IMG/VR virus record: IMGVR_UViG_3300014039_000028
Coordinates: 14,387-78,386 of that record
Reading direction: 5' to 3' (one strand)
DNA from: a virus
Taxonomy: Duplodnaviria > Caudoviricetes
DNA length: 64,000 bases
Part shown: positions 13,772 to 45,788 of the stretch, one piece after another
How the letters are laid out: each line of letters opens with the position of its first letter
Numbering within the stretch: position 1 is the first letter of the stretch
Translations under genes and position numbers: made by a program
The notes under the pieces: generated by a model
The model's input: only the letters and a program-made list of their open reading frames with translations
Database searches by the model: none
Told to the model about the DNA's origin: nothing

Positions 13772-14728
13772 TCAAACGGCTGCCGTAGGGCTTGCTACGG
13801 CGTTTTCAAGCACATTGCCAATGCTGGCTGCGAGTTTTGCAGGGTGTAGGCGCTGGGCGTATATCGCCGTTACCTTGGTGTCAGCGTGGCCGAGAACGCC
13901 GCTTATATCGTCGACCGCAACACCGGCTTCAAGCGCGGCGGATGCAAAGCCGTGACGCAGAGCATGAGAGCGGCAGGCGCTTTCTTCACCTATAACGGAC
14001 TTGGTATATCCGTTGATAAGCTCGGAGAGCTGGGTACGCTCCAACGGCTTCCACTCCCCTGTTTTGCGGCTGACGCAGCCGAACAGCGGCGCATTGTCAT
14101 CGGCAGAGTCCGGACGTATACCGGAGGCGAGGTAGTTTTTCACAGCAGTCTGAGCCGCAGCAGAGAACGGAACCATGCGGGGCTTATCGCCCTTGGTGAC
14201 GCGGAGCATGATGCAGCCGTTCGTCCAATCAAGGTCAGCCGGGGTAAGGGAACGAAGCTCAGAGTTACGCGCACCGGAGAGGAGCATAAGCGTGACCTCC
14301 GCCTGTTCCCTTGCCCATGTAGCCATTTTCTTGCCGTATACGGGGCGTTCAGCGGAGATAAGGGAATGTATCTGCTCAACGCTCAAAACGTGCTCATACG
14401 GCTTTTTCTTGGCTCTGGTGACCTTTCCCTTGGGCGGCATGGCATCGTCGAACACAAACGCCTCTGTATAGCCATATCTGGCCGCAAACTCGGAGAGCTG
14501 ACGGAGCTGCCCCATGTAGAGACTTGCTGTGGTGATAGCATCATGCGCGATGTCCGAACGGAACTTCATCACTGCGGCGGCGGTCACGTCCGCAAAACCG
14601 TGGCGCTCCATGCTCTCGCGGAAGAGTCGGAACGTCCGGGCATAACCAGTGACCGTCTGCACTGACAGCTCGTTATTGCGCATATTCTCTATGTAGGCCG
14701 CACATGCGGCGTCGTATTTCTCAAACAT
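13772..14728 (-). CDS. Second tyrosine recombinase (XerC/D-like)
   Basis: Complete catalytic set: GARNSE (R), TKG (K), HALRH, LGH, TAIY. Confidence 0.9.
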   Translation of the reverse strand: MFEKYDAACAAYIENMRNNELSVQTVTGYARTFRLFRESMERHGFADVTAAAVMKFRSDIAHDAITTASLYMGQLRQLSEFAARYGYTEAFVFDDAMPPKGKVTRAKKKPYEHVLSVEQIHSLISAERPVYGKKMATWAREQAEVTLMLLSGARNSELRSLTPADLDWTNGCIMLRVTKGDKPRMVPFSAAAQTAVKNYLASGIRPDSADDNAPLFGCVSRKTGEWKPLERTQLSELINGYTKSVIGEESACRSHALRHGFASAALEAGVAVDDISGVLGHADTKVTAIYAQRLHPAKLAASIGNVLENAVASPTAAV

Positions 14729-36700: not shown

Positions 36701-38895
36701 TCTTTTGGGATTCGCGTACTCGCAGTATTGGCACTGCACTTTATACGTCATCGCGTTCGCACATCCAGTCATCATTTGCTACACCCGACCTTTTGCCCTT
36801 TTGGCGGATTGGGCAGCGGCATCCAATGAGAGACGAATTTGTTGAGTGCCCAGCCTTTTGAGATTTGAATTTCACAATCCGAACCTGCCATATCCGGGAG
36901 ATATGCCAGAACACGCTCGTCCTCCTCTGGCAGTTTGTCCTCGACTTTTGTCCACTTGGACGCGGGGGCGTCAGCATCCTCCTCAAGCCTCTGCATCCAC
37001 TCGCACTCAGATGGCTCGCAAGGTTGGTCCGAGTGAAACTCATTGCACATATTGCAGATGATCGTCTTGGCTGTTTCGATTTTCGTATGTCCGTTCATTC
37101 TTTTCCCTCCATAAGTTACAACTGAGTCTGTTGTTGGAGGCGGCGGAATACTCGACGCATCGCTCCATCCAGTCGGTTGATATCCCCCGCTTCGGCGTTC
37201 GATGTCTGGCCGCTGAACACCACATTTTCTTCTATAAATGCAGTCACTCGTCATCTTCTACCTCCGCTATCCACATACTTATTTCTTTCTCTGCCGCGTC
37301 TAATGCCTCGTCCAGTGTCCGCCCTTTCCATTCATAATGCCGCGCGGGGCCGAGCACGTAGCAATGAAGACTGATTACATACCAGTTGGGAGCGTCCTCT
37401 CCGCTTCCCGCCAGTTCAAAGTAGTCCGGGAACTCAAACAGCAGCTCCATGTGCCCCTCATACGTCTTACAACAGGGGTCTATTTCGAGCGCTTTCTTTA
37501 TTCCAGCCATAACTTTCCGACGCAGCGCAAGGAATCTCTTATACGATTTTTCCACTTAGATTCTCACCTCACCGCTTAATCAATTTCAGCCACAAGGCAT
37601 CCGCGATTGAGAACAGCGCCCATATTCCGAAAAATTCGGTTTTGGGCTCTACGTCGTTCATGTCATACCAAATTGCCACCAAGAAAAACAAAAGACTCAT
37701 CCGCAGTCCCTCTTCACTCATAAAGCCCAAGACTCACAAACAGTCTCTTGGCTTCCTCGTCATACGCCTTATAATCCGGGTACTTGTCCAAAATGTCAGC
37801 GTACTTACACTTCTTCTGTCCCCCACATGCCTTGCGGTCTTTGCAATATACGCAGCCGTATTTCTTCTGCGAGTCCGGATTAACACCTACATACCCCTCC
37901 GAGCTGCCCAAGCCCTCGCGCGAGCCTTTTCGCTCTCTGGTACATCCGCAGTTTCTGACTCGTCCCGTGCGGATATCATATCCACGGCGGACAAATGTTT
38001 TCCCGCATATCCGACAGCGGCAGTTGAAATACGCACCCAAAGACCCACCGGAGCGCTTTTCGTTGTAACTCAGGACTTCTATGTCGTGGAATGTCTGCCC
38101 TGATATGTCGATGATTTTCATGTTGTCTCCTCTATTGTCTCAAGCAAAGCGATCAGCCCGAAAAACGACCTCGGATTTATCCCAGTCTTTTCCTTTGCCG
38201 CTGTCAAATGAAATTCCACTGTGGAGTTGTTCATGTTCAGCGCTCTGGCCGTAGCTGTGGCGTTCATATTGTTTTCGGCATAAGTGCAAATTACGCGCTT
38301 GCACTTCTCGGTTAATGGCCGTGGGCATTTGTCCATTCGGCTCCCCTCCTCTCTGCATAATGCGAATATTTATTCATCCGGTAAAAATTCTGCGGGGCAT
38401 ATCATATTTGTCTCTATCAGGAACGCCAATTTGAACTGTGGTACGGTAAAAATGCCCTCTTCCACAAGAACTTCTACACCGTGCTTCAGCGCTTCTCCAT
38501 CAATCACGGTTCCTTGCGGATAGCCAATAAACTGCGTGACAAAACGCTTTACCGCTTCAAATTGTTCGCTCGAAGCCCACACGATAGTCCCTCACTTCCG
38601 ACATGTCTACAACTCTCAACCTTGCTTGGTAATGGAAATCACCAGAACCGTCCTGCCAGAATCTCCACTCTATGAAACGGCTAAGCTCCTTGGATGTAAC
38701 GAGCTTTTCTACGAGATCCTTCTCGCCGAACTCCTTTATAATATCTTCGCCGAAGGTTTCCATCTCTTCGCGTGAATATATCCTTGTAGCTACGAAAGTT
38801 TCAGGCCGCAAATTGATCCGAACAACTTTAGGCGGCGGCAGTTGTTCTGTATACCCACCCAGTTTGCGTATGATCCAGCGCTTAATTTTGTTCAT
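33763..38895 (-). other. Run of about 15 small hypothetical genes, many Cys-rich; includes AP2/HNH-adjacent-like 37714-38121 and PucR/CdaR-HTH-like 38118-38336
   Basis: Overlapping stop/start ORFs in the track; functions not assignable. Confidence 0.55.
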
Positions 38896-39595
38896 CGTTC
38901 ATTCTCCCCTCCATCACAAAAAGACTTTGCTGTGCCGTATATTCGTTGAAGCGCTCTTCTTGAAGCTTGAAATACGTTGGGTCTATTTCGCAGCCCACGA
39001 AATCAAGTCCTGCGTCATAGGCCGCGATTCGGCTGCTGCCGCTTCCGAGATGCGTGTCAAGGATCCGGTCTCCGGGTTTCGCGTAGTTTTTGAAAATCCA
39101 CCGATAGAGTGCGACTGCCTTTTGCGTAGGATGAATCTGTTTCTCGTTCAGCTTTTTGTTCCCCTGCTGAATCGTGCCCTCTTCAACGCTCTTCCCTTGC
39201 AGCATTCCATTCCACATGAAGCGGAATATCCTGACGCTGGTAAAGAGGTCTGTCGCGGCCAGCTCACAGTCGGAAAAACTGCTTGAGGAATTGCACTTGT
39301 CCCACACGATTCGCCCCGGCGCGAAGCGATAGTCAAAGTAATTGCATCCCCACACTATGTAATGCTTGGCAACGCGCCGAAGTTCCTCAAAATATTCCGC
39401 GTTTGGAATGTCCCACTGTGGGGAGATGGGATAATCCCTGTGAACGCCGATTTTGCTGACACGGCTCCCGTAATAGCCGCGCCTTTCCGGTCCTGAGAAA
39501 TATGGCGGGTCAACTACTGCGAGGTCGAACGCCTTGTCAGGAACTGTGCGCATGTACTCCATGCAGTCGCAGTTGACTACTATGCTTTCGCTCAT
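38882..39595 (-). CDS. DNA amino-methyltransferase (N6-A/N4-C, beta class)
   Basis: VVDPPY (motif IV), IHPTQK, ILDTHLGSGS (motif I). Confidence 0.9.
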   Translation of the reverse strand: MSESIVVNCDCMEYMRTVPDKAFDLAVVDPPYFSGPERRGYYGSRVSKIGVHRDYPISPQWDIPNAEYFEELRRVAKHYIVWGCNYFDYRFAPGRIVWDKCNSSSSFSDCELAATDLFTSVRIFRFMWNGMLQGKSVEEGTIQQGNKKLNEKQIHPTQKAVALYRWIFKNYAKPGDRILDTHLGSGSSRIAAYDAGLDFVGCEIDPTYFKLQEERFNEYTAQQSLFVMEGRMNDEQN

Positions 39596-39607
39596 TTCAT
39601 CACTCCC

Positions 39608-40138
39608 TTACACTTCATCTCCCCATGCGTCCCAGCCGGGGAATCGTTCTCTCGCAAATATCTCTATGCGCGGCTCATAGCTCACCAGTTCTATCATGCG
39701 GCGCATTTCTTCGGGCTTGCGGCTGTGCACCGTTTTGGGTGCATAGAATCCCGTTTTTCCCTGACAGCGTTTACCTTCGGGAGAAACTTTGTAAGGCAAG
39801 CGCTTTTTCGTCGTGGCAAATATGCAATGTTCAGTCAGTCCTCTGTAATACTGTCCCAAGCCCTGCTGGTTTTTCATCCACGTTATCGTTGTCACATACT
39901 CGAATCCCCACGCCTTCACGCATTCAATGGCGGCGGGTAGATAATTATTGGTAGCCCAGCAGTACAGATGGCACCCGTCAGGGGCTGCAAGTTGCATGAC
40001 CGGGAGCGCCTTGATCTCGGCAACAGACATCAAACTGTAGTGCTTGTCCGCTCCGCGCTTGATTTTGCCGCCTCCCCGCTCTGGCCACGGCGGGTCTATG
40101 TAGATTGTGCGGTATTTGTCACTTGGAAAGTCGTTCAT
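39608..40138 (-). CDS. MT-A70 family adenine methyltransferase
   Basis: YRTIYIDPPW, HYSLMS, HSRKPEE, RIEIFARERFPGWDAWGDE. Confidence 0.9.
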   Translation of the reverse strand: MNDFPSDKYRTIYIDPPWPERGGGKIKRGADKHYSLMSVAEIKALPVMQLAAPDGCHLYCWATNNYLPAAIECVKAWGFEYVTTITWMKNQQGLGQYYRGLTEHCIFATTKKRLPYKVSPEGKRCQGKTGFYAPKTVHSRKPEEMRRMIELVSYEPRIEIFARERFPGWDAWGDEV

Positions 40139-40256
40139 ACGCCCTCCTTGATTTTGAAAAACTGACAGCCGCGGCCTTTATCGCAGTCGTTGGCGCAGAA
40201 CCGGCATGGATTCGCATCGAGCACCAACAGTTTGACGATTCGGCACAGCCGTTCTT

Positions 40257-40861
40257 TCATGTTGAACTGTCCTCCTCAGTTTTAGGGTACAAATCTTCCA
40301 AATCCCCCGCGAGACGGTGATACTCGCTGTTTTCCTCGATTTCAGCCTTGAGACGGTTCGCCAAATCCTCAATTCGCGTCTGTTGTTTGAGCAGTGTAGT
40401 CACGCACTCATCGAGATATTGCGCAGCGGCAAGATAGCCGCACTTGCCTATCGCTCTTCCATCCTTGCCATCTCTAAGAGCTTCCTCTTTAAGGTCAGCA
40501 AGGAACCTCACCAGAGTTGCCATACGATTTGGTGCATAATTACTCACTTTTCATTTCCCTCCTCATAATTGTCTTTCAAGTATCTGTTTCGTCTGCAACA
40601 GGAGCATTTCTGGTGCTTTTGCTTATTCTTGCAAGTACCGCAACCGCCGATAGTAATACTGTCTGCGAGAAGCGGATTGTTCGCTATGAAATTCGCTTCC
40701 AGTAGCTGGATTGTGTTCAGAAGAGCGCTGTCCATATACGGACTGTCATTCGTCATTCGGTTAAGGCGGCACTTACCTAAAAAATCCAGCAAGTGGTCAA
40801 AATTGATATACCTGACTGCGTTGCCGTATAACTTCACGCGCTCCTTCTCTTTCCTTGTCAT
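40257..40861 (-). other. Two small hypothetical genes (40257-40547, 40544-40861)
   Basis: Coupled ORFs. Confidence 0.5.
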
Positions 40862-43125
40862 TAGCGCACCACGGCTCCTCTCAAAAATTCATCTAAGTCA
40901 CCGGATATACCGGCATCCTCGTCTCCGAAATGTCTCTTTACGACAGCAATCGGGAACTGCTCAATTTCGCTTGCCCAACGGCAGTTTTCCGCGCCGTGGA
41001 TTTCAGCCCAGCACAGCGGAAACCCGCCTATACCGTCGAACAGTGAACCAAGCGTCGCGTCCGCCGGTAGATACTCGCTTATGCGGCGCAGCAGCCATTT
41101 CCAGAACGGGAGAGCGATGCTGTTGCCAAGGGCTTTATATTTAGGCGCATCAGATTCTTTATGTACGCGTCCTTTCTCATCTGTCCACTCACCTATGTCA
41201 ACCCATCCGTCCGGGAATCCCTGAAGTCTGGTACATTCCAGCGGGGTCAGTCTACGCACTGCGCCTGACTGTCGGCATATATTGTTGAGATTGAGACTTG
41301 AGCCACCAGATTCTTTAGCTTGAAGCGTACCGTTCACATCGCCGTTCTCCGTAAAATTTCTGCAATCTACAGCAGCTGAAAGAACATAAGTTGTTGAATC
41401 CTCGCGAAACGAGTCCTTTCCTGAGGCGCGTAAGGTGTGTGCTACGAGCATATCGTTATAAGCGTCCTGCCCGTTGTAGCTTCCAGCGTGTGCTCCCGGT
41501 GAGAGTGTTCCGGTTACCTGTTGATATGTAAGTGGGACTTGATTTCCGCCAGTTCCCATCCTTGCTTGTAGGCTCGGTACAACCTCGCCGCACTCTCTTA
41601 TGACATCATTCGCATGGCTCATATCCAATATTGCAGGAACTTGATTCGTGCCGCTTGAAACCGCTGATAATGTAGGTGAGGTCTCTTCTGCATAACCTAT
41701 ACTGCCCGCTTTCGCACCTTGTCCAGACTTAAACGCTGCCACTATATGCTTGTCTGCCACGGTGATGGTCGGCGCAGGATCACCATCCTTGCCGATTCCA
41801 AGACCGTTCCCGCTACCGTCGTTCTTGCGGGTATCTCCTCCGCCCTTGAATCGCGTCGCTTTGTCGTTTATTGGGATGACTACCGATTCCGCGCCGTGCT
41901 GTTGGGTGCTTGCGACTGCTGGATAAGTGCCTGCTTCAACTGTTCCGGCAGGTCTTTCCCTCTGCTTTCCGCTCTCCGGAGTATCCCCTGACAGGCTGCA
42001 CGGCTCAAATAATATTTCGTGGGCGGTGCTTCCTCCAAAATCTGCGACAACCGAGATTCTACTGTTGGATAGTTGAACGTTCCAAGTCCGTAGAATGTCA
42101 TGCCCGACCAGTTGAGCAAGGCTCTTTCCATTTGCGGATTCCTCATTCATATACCCCCTTATCACGGTTAAAACAGATTTTGCCCAGCCGAAGAAGTTCG
42201 GCGCATCGGGATTCGTCTCCATCGCACAGTTTAGATAAGCTCCAGTGACATTTAGCGTGCGCAGCAGGGTTTGGAAACAAGTGCAGATTCGACGGATCGT
42301 TATTTCGCTTGTTGCAGTCGATGTGATGAACTCGTTCTGAAGAAGTGAGTGCGCGTCCAAGGTGTTTCTCAACCACGCTCCTATGGATATATTTTCTTCT
42401 GCAATTTTCGATGACGTACTCGTACCCTCTGTCATCTGCGCGAACAAGTCCATCTGGATTTCGCCAACTCTTGAACCCAAGTTTTCTTGCTCTTTTGGAT
42501 AATTCGCTTCCATCTCGTCCAAGAAGCGTTGCCACCTCTTTATGGTCTCTTCCTTTTGAAGCGAGAATAATTTTATCCTCTTCTGGAGTCCATCTTCGGA
42601 TAGCCACTTTGCGCGGCACTCCGATTTTTTCGGCGCGATGCCTAATCGCGCACACGCTTCGACCCAGTCTATCAGCAATATCTCTGTGAGGCATTGAAGC
42701 ATAATGCTGTCTGATATAATTGTCCTCTTGCTGAGTAAATAGTGGATGTTTGCCCATACTATCCCAATTCTCCTTCTTCTTTGCGGAACGCCGCAATACT
42801 GCGCATCGTGAATCTGCGGGTCTGGAATAAAGCCAATCTCAGTCATCATATCCAAGGCAGCTACAAAATCCTCTCCATTATTGCTACTCAACATTCCGGG
42901 CACATTCTCAAACACCACAAATTTAGGGTACTTTCCTCTGGTCGATGAATACATCTCGCTGATTACCCTAACAGCTTCAATGTATAGACCAGAACGATTC
43001 CCTGCTAGTCCCATACGCCTCCCAGCGATACTCAAATCCTGACAAGGCGAACCAAAGGTGATGACATCTACCGGCTCTATTTCAGCGCCGTTTATCTTCG
43101 TTATATCTCCTAAATGTCTCACCAA
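40861..43125 (-). CDS. C5-cytosine DNA methyltransferase alpha subunit, circularly permuted, with a 237-codon insertion
   Basis: FGSPCQDLS (IV), FENVPG (VI), VPQRRRR (VIII), RRLTPLEC, YKALGNS (X), then LFDGIGGF (I) and WASEIE (II) at the C-terminus. Confidence 0.9.
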   Translation of the reverse strand: MVRHLGDITKINGAEIEPVDVITFGSPCQDLSIAGRRMGLAGNRSGLYIEAVRVISEMYSSTRGKYPKFVVFENVPGMLSSNNGEDFVAALDMMTEIGFIPDPQIHDAQYCGVPQRRRRIGIVWANIHYLLSKRTIISDSIMLQCLTEILLIDWVEACARLGIAPKKSECRAKWLSEDGLQKRIKLFSLQKEETIKRWQRFLDEMEANYPKEQENLGSRVGEIQMDLFAQMTEGTSTSSKIAEENISIGAWLRNTLDAHSLLQNEFITSTATSEITIRRICTCFQTLLRTLNVTGAYLNCAMETNPDAPNFFGWAKSVLTVIRGYMNEESANGKSLAQLVGHDILRTWNVQLSNSRISVVADFGGSTAHEILFEPCSLSGDTPESGKQRERPAGTVEAGTYPAVASTQQHGAESVVIPINDKATRFKGGGDTRKNDGSGNGLGIGKDGDPAPTITVADKHIVAAFKSGQGAKAGSIGYAEETSPTLSAVSSGTNQVPAILDMSHANDVIRECGEVVPSLQARMGTGGNQVPLTYQQVTGTLSPGAHAGSYNGQDAYNDMLVAHTLRASGKDSFREDSTTYVLSAAVDCRNFTENGDVNGTLQAKESGGSSLNLNNICRQSGAVRRLTPLECTRLQGFPDGWVDIGEWTDEKGRVHKESDAPKYKALGNSIALPFWKWLLRRISEYLPADATLGSLFDGIGGFPLCWAEIHGAENCRWASEIEQFPIAVVKRHFGDEDAGISGDLDEFLRGAVVR
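41880..42146 (-). CDS. Nested EcoHK31I-type methyltransferase beta subunit (alternative frame)
   Basis: SRLSQILE...KYYLSRAACQGILRRAESRGKDLP (motif IX); ATG overlaps the HNH stop. Confidence 0.75.
   Translation of the reverse strand: MRNPQMERALLNWSGMTFYGLGTFNYPTVESRLSQILEEAPPTKYYLSRAACQGILRRAESRGKDLPEQLKQALIQQSQAPNSTARNR
42143..42757 (-). CDS. Nested HNH endonuclease with two N-terminal Myb/SANT-like repeats (alternative frame)
   Basis: FTQQED / WTPEED repeats; VHHIDCNKRNNDPSNL...H..CH; RBS AAGGAG. Confidence 0.85.
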   Translation of the reverse strand: MGKHPLFTQQEDNYIRQHYASMPHRDIADRLGRSVCAIRHRAEKIGVPRKVAIRRWTPEEDKIILASKGRDHKEVATLLGRDGSELSKRARKLGFKSWRNPDGLVRADDRGYEYVIENCRRKYIHRSVVEKHLGRALTSSERVHHIDCNKRNNDPSNLHLFPNPAAHAKCHWSLSKLCDGDESRCAELLRLGKICFNRDKGVYE

Positions 43126-43173
43126 AAACCACCTCCTTCATGCCAGCGCGAGTGCGTCTGGCTCTTTGGTGCT

Positions 43174-44635: not shown

Positions 44636-45078
44636 ATGGAGGAGGGCTAAAGATGCCACTACTTAACTACACCACGAAAGTGGATGTCTATACCACGATA
44701 GGTGCTATACAGGGGCAGCTTGTAAAGCACGGAGCAAAGAAGATCATGCAGGAATATGACGATGCCGGTCGCATAACGGCTCTATCTTTCCAGATAGACA
44801 CGCCCAACGGGATACGGGGCATAAAGCTTCCGTCTAATGCAGAGGCGGTTAGGCACGTGCTCGCACGACAGAAAGTCAAATGTGATGTTGAGCAGTCTGA
44901 ACGAGTTGCGTGGCGTATCATCAAAGACTGGGTAGAAGCTCAAATGGCAATTCTTGAAAGTGAGATGGTGCAGATGGATGAAATCTTTTTGCCATATATG
45001 CTCAACAGTAAAGGTCAGACAGTTTTTGAAGCATATCAGAGCCAGCAGTTATGGCTTGGAGATGGAGGAGAAAAATGA
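44632..45078 (+). CDS. Conserved hypothetical phage protein
   Basis: LNYTTKV...QSERVAWRIIKDWVEAQMA. Confidence 0.6.
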   Translation: MNGGGLKMPLLNYTTKVDVYTTIGAIQGQLVKHGAKKIMQEYDDAGRITALSFQIDTPNGIRGIKLPSNAEAVRHVLARQKVKCDVEQSERVAWRIIKDWVEAQMAILESEMVQMDEIFLPYMLNSKGQTVFEAYQSQQLWLGDGGEK

Positions 45079-45788
45079 GCAAACCAATTTATGTTCCAAA
45101 AGGAAAAGCCAAAGAATATGGCGACTATGCGATCAATATTTACACAGGATGTCCACACCGTTGCTTTTACTGCTTCGCCCCGAATGTGCTCCACCGCGAC
45201 AGAGAGACTTTTCACACAAATGTCAAGCCGAGAGAGAACATAGTCGAGGAAGTCCGAAAGCAGATCGAACGTGAACACATCACCGGACGGCTCATTCATC
45301 TATGGGTGCTTTCTCACATTAACTCCTTTATGGTGGTTATGACCCGTGATGGTTTTACCCTGCTCGTTATGGGCTACAACGGCAAACTCGCCATGAAGTT
45401 CAAGGAAGCCTATATCAAGCAGTTCAATGCAATGGAAAGTGTTCTTCGCAAGAAAATGATAGCGCGTGAAAGAGGTCGAGCTTCCAGAGAATTTTTAACG
45501 GATTCCATACAGCAGTCCGATGAGGATGCGCGTATGCACGGGCACGCCTACTCAACCTATACCAACTGCATCTACAAGGTGCTTTTCGGGAAATCCGCGG
45601 CTCAGTTGCGGATGGACTACGGCATAGGCAGGACAGACAATCTCCGAGATTGCTTCTCGCCCGAGGATTTAGCGGCAGTGGACTCTATGGAGCATTTAGT
45701 AAGTGGTTTGGTCGCCTGTGGCTGGGAGTATGGGCGGATAAAAGACTTCATCGAGCAGACAAACACACAAAAGGCTTTAATGGCGTGA
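45075..45788 (+). CDS. Chimeric ORF: radical SAM N-terminus fused to the C-terminal part of a Rha protein
   Basis: NIYTGCPHRCFYC (CxxxCxxC), then MTRDGFTLLVMGYNGKLAMKFKEAYI. Confidence 0.7.
   Translation: MSKPIYVPKGKAKEYGDYAINIYTGCPHRCFYCFAPNVLHRDRETFHTNVKPRENIVEEVRKQIEREHITGRLIHLWVLSHINSFMVVMTRDGFTLLVMGYNGKLAMKFKEAYIKQFNAMESVLRKKMIARERGRASREFLTDSIQQSDEDARMHGHAYSTYTNCIYKVLFGKSAAQLRMDYGIGRTDNLRDCFSPEDLAAVDSMEHLVSGLVACGWEYGRIKDFIEQTNTQKALMA

Follow-up and report, generated by a model that had tools for sequence, protein, structure and literature searches.

A C5 cytosine methyltransferase gene of a tailed phage stays open across a second gene, encoding a Myb-HNH endonuclease, that is read in another frame of the same strand. 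The locus lies within the window, a 64,000-nucleotide stretch of IMG/VR record IMGVR_UViG_3300014039_000028 (positions 14,387 to 78,386). Taken as a whole, it is probably best explained as a homing-type cassette that does not splice and that resides in the alpha/beta C5 methyltransferase genes of phages. New here are how deep the family runs, the cassette that replaces resident sequence, and the evidence from conservation and structure prediction for the methylase-frame reading of the nuclease gene (the passenger) as a selected and folded domain.

Locus layout and genome context

The window is part of a 78-kb single-contig phage genome containing an integrase and a tail gene, which points to a temperate phage. 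The alpha chain (754 aa; minus strand, 40861..43125) matched PF00145 (E 9e-42), and its core matched M.HhaI (E 6e-8). Alpha was circularly permuted: motifs III-VIII were followed by the passenger domain, a low-confidence TRD region, motif X, and motifs I-II. The catalytic PCQ, ENV, motif I and motif X were all intact, and alpha/beta presumably acts as a methylase. The alpha Shine-Dalgarno (SD) site, AAGGAGGT, was located at 43131-43138.

Motif VIII (PQRRRR; minus strand, 42769..42786) contained in its Arg codons the SD of the nuclease gene, AAGGAG (42770-42775), 12 nt before the HNH ATG. The hidden endonuclease (204 aa; minus strand, 42143..42757) lay in the third frame with respect to alpha, on the same strand and offset by two bases. 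It comprised two Myb-like repeats (profile match to c-Myb, E 1e-4) and an HNH_3 core (E 2e-10) with His/Asp/Asn/His residues intact; an intact HNH catalytic motif with a DNA-binding domain is a homing-endonuclease feature. The ORFs, PF00145 and HNH_3 matches thus agreed with the first-pass annotation, which had described a 754-codon methylase frame open across a 204-codon Myb-HNH gene with an intact HNH motif. The passenger (237 aa; minus strand, 42061..42771) started with a strand after motif VIII and was predicted to form a helical bundle with one disordered loop. The beta chain, a motif IX-type subunit of 88 aa in the +1 frame (minus strand, 41880..42146), had its own SD, AAGGGGGT, at 42153-42160 within the C-terminal codons of HNH. 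Its ATG overlapped the HNH TGA, as had been noted before and as the ORFs around 42143-42146 confirm. Neither beta nor the passenger matched Pfam, PHROG or NCBIfam, and an additional copy of the alpha, HNH or beta gene was not found in the same genome.

The C5 gene was one of three methyltransferases clustered at 38882-43125 (minus strand), with an N6/N4 enzyme at 38882-39595 and an MT-A70 enzyme at 39608-40138. At 45051-45788 (plus strand), a Radical-SAM N-terminal piece was joined to a Rha-family domain, by appearance a recombinant or truncated gene. Within alpha (40866-43125), residues 356-620 formed a long low-confidence region of short repeated motifs, highly variable in length among relatives; these are likely shuffled target-recognition modules.

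Distribution of filled and empty alleles

Among the best 120 alpha homologues, the gap between motif VIII and the next conserved block was 3 residues in about 80 (empty; 79 with exactly 3) and 240 residues in 30 (filled). With the alpha-frame insert as query, at least 70 clusters at 50% identity were recovered; the match followed motif VIII immediately in nearly all of them, and in a DNA-level sample of three insert clusters HNH and beta were in the same frames in all three. Embedded loci came from gut and environmental metagenomes, from MAGs labelled Oscillospiraceae, Roseburia, Lachnospiraceae and Planctomycetales, and from cluster J mycobacteriophages. HNH copies were 32-65% identical pairwise; the cassette layout was fixed and the HNH catalytic residues were intact throughout. 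Judged by sequence, the motif VIII family is old and widespread, occurring in gut Clostridia phages, a Planctomycete MAG and cluster J mycobacteriophages across several phyla.

Filled and empty states were interleaved on trees of the downstream part (45-110 columns, the S5 tree being a quick tree), with 11-15 changes, at least 5-7 of them forced by supported branches. Interleaving would be expected from repeated invasion; ordinary segment shuffling can give the same pattern, so it is not proof of homing. Cluster J contained a filled allele in Bombitas and empty alleles in Porcelain and Omega, and HNH was annotated in some cluster J records.

Protein P0008 (1012 aa) contained a type-2 cassette and a second HNH_3, inserted in frame after RLQGFP and ahead of the segment that precedes motif X; its ends did not obviously resemble those of an intein. 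In L016, L017, L030, L034 and protein P0034, alpha ended about 90-110 codons past the HNH end and the beta frame continued into the TRD and motif X. By these frames, the C-terminal half of the methylase swaps between frames among relatives.

Open methylase frame across the nuclease gene

Loci were retrieved through HNH, so retrieval was independent of an open alpha frame. The alpha frame was stop-free in 23 of 23 embedded loci (four of them cut by contig ends); stops in relatives, named earlier as an observation that would count against dual coding, were thus searched for and not found in these loci. With the HNH protein held fixed, 6-10 alpha-frame stops were expected. The remaining third frame across HNH had 9-30 stops in full-length embedded copies and 15 in the window's own copy; the idea that all three frames are used therefore held at the short HNH/beta overlap and failed across HNH. 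Homologues of HNH outside methylases had 2-13 stops in the alpha-equivalent frame, except for two short partial matches. One escaped HNH copy outside any methylase (L035, 48% identical) retained an alpha-peptide relic with five stops. The 23 open frames against 6-10 expected stops, the stops in relatives outside methylases and the escaped copy together indicate that the open alpha frame is kept by selection. The escaped copy also had a frameshift near HNH's own C-terminus (L035:2400-3100).

For a single copy, the frame would be open with a probability of about 6e-4 when the HNH protein and base composition are held fixed, and of 0.008 when the gene's own codons are shuffled. Both values exceed the 1e-5 or so first estimated, and it is the family, rather than the window copy alone, that makes chance untenable.

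L073 had an open frame across a partial HNH match, with motif VIII absent. Phage Thibault (L064; JN201525 gp102-105) had a one-base frameshift near alpha codon 44 with the downstream insert still stop-free; its HNH and beta are the annotated gp103 and gp104. A near-identical allele (L068:1286-2500) had a 33-nt in-frame HNH deletion and a second deletion that truncated beta and fused it to the C-terminal frame; this allele is probably decaying. Because carriers such as Thibault, with its frameshift, and L068, with its truncated beta, appear decayed, not every open frame represents a working enzyme.

Translation signals and the rebuilt beta gene

In filled copies, 34 of 48 motif VIII Arg codons were AGR, versus 46 of 115 upstream, and empty alleles mostly used CGN. 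Mean anti-SD energy at the HNH SD was -7.1 versus a background of -2.7. In 13 of 14 copies HNH started 26 or 29 nt past the Pro of motif VIII, downstream of the AGR-rich Arg codons; the SD was weak in 2-4 of 13. The AGR enrichment and the site at 42770-42775 bear out the proposal that motif VIII supplies the HNH ribosome-binding site.

A second ORF nested in the +1 frame around motif VIII was conserved, as in M.EcoHK31I-type alpha/beta enzymes. In empty alleles beta started between motifs VI and VIII. The beta frame between these motifs was open in all three empty alleles and closed in all 13 filled copies. In the filled copies beta had its own SD and started 11 or 14 nt downstream of a Gly codon conserved near the end of HNH. 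In the window copy, the initial ~29 beta codons arrive with the cassette. Exact removal of the 711 nt would also strip beta of its SD, its start and a conserved W-x-G segment. Dependence of beta on the inserted element, one half of an earlier lock-in proposal, is therefore supported by the closed VI-VIII frame. Strict stop/start coupling, the other half, was not upheld: the ATGA overlap occurred in only 2 of 14 copies, and beta has its own SD. The ORFs, SD sites and their conservation suggest that three SD sites on one mRNA would give alpha, Myb-HNH and beta.

Conservation and predicted fold of the passenger

HNH third codon positions coincide with alpha second positions. Four-fold sites of HNH were 48.5% conserved versus 26.5% expected, with the same result after excluding Leu and Val; in the single-coded part of the same genes they were saturated (26.7 versus 25.1 expected). 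Alpha identity in the insert was 29.5%, against 20.5±0.3 in shuffles that preserved the HNH protein and forbade stops; third-frame identity was likewise above its null (26.4 versus 20.2). Alpha substitutions were conservative (-0.82 versus a null of -1.06±0.02), compared with -0.94 versus -1.00±0.02 in the third frame. By these measures alpha-frame residues are conserved beyond stop avoidance. RNA folding of the insert gave a z of 0.03 and no consensus structure was found over 13 copies, so RNA structure does not explain the alpha-frame conservation.

AlphaFold2 modelled the passenger alone as a helical bundle (pLDDT 80, pTM 0.78), also seen within the alpha model, although such confidence can rise with alignment depth and the alpha-frame alignment inherits HNH-frame signal. 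The loop at alpha 219-242 was modelled as disordered. Excess conservation was lowest in this loop (0.23) and high in the helices, and the natural 33-nt deletion, which preserved both frames, fell in the loop.

The AlphaFold model of alpha with beta scored 0.88, against 0.02 for the best of three controls; its core/motif IX part may pass through likeness to solved C5 enzymes. Its runs agreed in at least 60% of contacts, with a partner pLDDT no lower than 80. Among reference pairs, 58 of 80 solved and 2 of 110 mismatched ones attained this mark, counts that are rough because own alignments were used. The best predicted contacts joined beta 1-33 to alpha 76-125 and to passenger segments 137-148, 168-186 and 307-317. 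The predicted interface was slightly more conserved, a weak enrichment (p 0.04). In fold searches the best passenger hit, a syntaxin helical bundle (Z 9.1, rmsd 2.5, 115 aligned), was under the level meaningful for helical bundles; the best value against the Atlas was 0.85, and Foldseek against viral models gave no match at E<=0.001. The insert had been described as reading like off-frame sequence. Its conservation and predicted fold speak against that description, and the passenger appears to be a selected, folded domain, not mere filler.

Junctions of the mobile cassette

Between filled copies and the best empty allele, identity was about 65% over motifs III-VI, about 30% over VI-VIII, and 71-98% downstream. 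Type-2 cassettes were 88-100% identical to each other and were joined to several downstream allele types. The Bombitas allele matched those of Porcelain and Omega at motif I, and agreement resumed a few codons beyond motif VIII. In the window copy identity to the empty allele L015 began at 42062, and the type-2 allele joined 10 nt further on; 3' junctions clustered just past motif VIII in three lineages. These junctions indicate that what moves is the 5' half of the gene, a cassette of motifs III-VIII, HNH and the beta start, which takes the place of the recipient's own segment. In this copy it spans 42063..43125 (minus strand), the 5' end not being mapped.

The AGAAT pair reported in the first-pass annotation was present at 42767-42771 and 42056-42060 with the stated spacing of 711 nt. 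The accompanying picture of an insertion bounded by repeats did not stand, since the upstream VI-VIII segment had been replaced too. Likewise, comparing filled with empty homologues did separate 240-residue from 3-residue gaps and yielded no clean 711-nt insertion. The positions of the window and type-2 junctions identify the second AGAAT (minus strand, 42056..42060) as the recipient allele's own Arg-Ile codons at the motif VIII end, left by a crossover just 5' of it.

AGAAT occurred five times in the methylase gene. A target-site duplication was rejected for AGAAT, which was not conserved and was unrepeated in the type-2 allele. The insert's 3' end might be a decayed motif VII-VIII duplicate: one alignment was suggestive, but a profile scan of 37 copies showed no peak at the expected offset.

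Proposed mechanism and alternatives

An ancestral HNH gene would have inserted just after motif VIII, where beta normally overlaps alpha. The beta start would have been relocated behind HNH and the upstream motifs VI-VIII copy would have become single-coded, as is observed in filled copies. The alpha-frame reading of HNH, kept stop-free, may then have been selected into a helical domain that is predicted to pack against the new beta N-terminus. Being co-adapted, motifs VI-VIII, the passenger and the N-terminus of beta would travel together as a block. The most likely target of HNH is the empty allele, nicked in or close to the dual-coded stretch of motifs VII-VIII, a form that filled alleles lack. 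Repair would then copy in the entire 5' half; one crossover would fall immediately 3' of motif VIII and the other far upstream, around motifs I-III, where the junctions are seen. The nick and repair steps are proposed by analogy to intronless homing with co-conversion (PMC2988022), and homing itself we infer solely from the patchy distribution. A single mRNA would give three proteins from three SD sites with alpha read straight through the nuclease gene, and the host enzyme would survive thanks to a passenger that folds out of the way and contributes to holding the rebuilt beta.

Excision of the 711 nt or 237 aa by an unrecognised self-splicing intron or intein is very improbable. The insert length is a multiple of three, and excision would restore the protein sequence of the empty allele. 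However, the insert had no Rfam match to a group I or II intron core and lacked RNA structure, and at the intein level there was no family match and no Cys/Ser/Thr-His-Asn ends at the junctions. Insert ends also vary between lineages, and splicing would delete the beta SD and start and would need no stop-free, conserved alpha frame. The earlier preference for dual coding over splicing is upheld by this lack of signatures and by selection on the frame. A dead methylase whose frame stayed open through chance or recent insertion is scarcely credible, even with a single-copy chance of 0.008 that is not negligible and a few broken carriers: all embedded loci are open across deep divergence, the escaped copy gains stops, and the catalytic motifs are intact.

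It is unlikely, yet deserves real weight, that the passenger is a merely tolerated loop, selected only against stops, whose apparent fold and contacts follow from the conservation of HNH, as proposed for ShiLan. The third-frame excess and the weak interface enrichment fit this reading, as do ShiLan inserts modelled at low confidence (PMC11855218). Against it, alpha was far more conserved and conservative than the third frame in nulls that fixed HNH and forbade stops, and excess conservation followed the helices rather than the loop. More doubtful still is a domesticated module, in which dual coding and translation are real but the cassette has lost homing and passes between phages by their usual recombination; HNH would persist in some other function, either cleaving the DNA of rival phages or binding DNA with its Myb repeats. 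The age of the cassette, its fixed layout, the travel of the entire 5' half with HNH, and the free shuffling of segments among phage methylase genes would suit such a module; the family-wide integrity of the catalytic residues, the near-identical type-2 cassettes on varied downstream halves and the 3' junctions clustered in three lineages argue for the homing-type cassette instead.

Comparison with known systems

The ShiLan domain and the Pacc40 gp60 insert are hidden out-of-frame HNH genes in actinobacteriophage methylases (PMC11855218, PMC9957025). The ShiLan hiding strategy was published in 2025 (PMC11855218), which overturns the initial statement that no element of this type had been described. 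ShiLan and the motif VIII family share an insert of about 200-240 codons that is stop-free in the methylase frame, an HNH in the third frame (the same relative frame), no intron or intein features, and a patchy filled/empty distribution. Their HNH_3 cores were distantly alike (E 7e-7, 44% over 55 aa), and the passenger had no similarity to the ShiLan insert sequence. ShiLan gp65, an N4/N6 (DPPY) methylase, carries an HNH of the zinc-finger type that lacks a ribosome-binding site; the in-frame product is of low confidence, and ShiLan elements have diverged little. In contrast, the motif VIII family comprises at least 70 clusters across several phyla, with a C5 methylase, a site after motif VIII, an HNH with Myb repeats, SD sites, a nested beta gene that the element has rebuilt, and a passenger that is conserved and predicted to fold. 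By sequence comparison, the motif VIII element is in the ShiLan-type functional class and separate from the ShiLan domain sequence family. A paper on the motif VIII family was not found in the literature searched, mostly outside subscription journals.

In M.EcoHK31I, the beta chain with motif IX lies wholly within alpha in another frame, and alpha carries motifs I-VIII, X and the TRD (PMC2836561). Nesting of beta in a different frame is shared, a likeness of gene layout; here, unlike M.EcoHK31I, alpha is permuted, the beta start and N-terminus are supplied by a nuclease cassette, and a partner restriction enzyme is not evident. The free-standing phage HNH endonucleases T4 mobA/mobE and the Aeh1 nrdA system are known for intronless homing and genes-in-pieces (PMC2988022). 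They share the absence of splicing, a nicking HNH and co-conversion of flanking host sequence, nicking and co-conversion being supposed here. In those systems the host gene is split or the nuclease lies between genes, whereas here the host frame reads through the nuclease gene.

Implications

The ShiLan observation, made on a few near-identical copies, is extended to a deep family with built-in controls, among them the escaped copy L035, which shows frame decay once released from the methylase. The cultured cluster J alleles, filled in Bombitas and empty in Porcelain and Omega, suit direct testing of non-splicing homing. Gene callers record only one of the three proteins, so most annotations lack such nucleases and beta subunits. 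Should the predicted fold and contacts prove right, the passenger would be a rare example of a long domain that arose de novo by overprinting, one whose ancestral frame is known and whose function can be predicted. We put at slightly less than even the chance that a selfish nuclease gene, read off-frame, has given rise by overprinting to a new ~230-residue helical domain that works within the host enzyme by holding beta. The methylase would then need the nuclease gene twice, for the domain and for the beta start, and a parasite would have been fixed by dual coding in dozens of phage lineages across several bacterial phyla.
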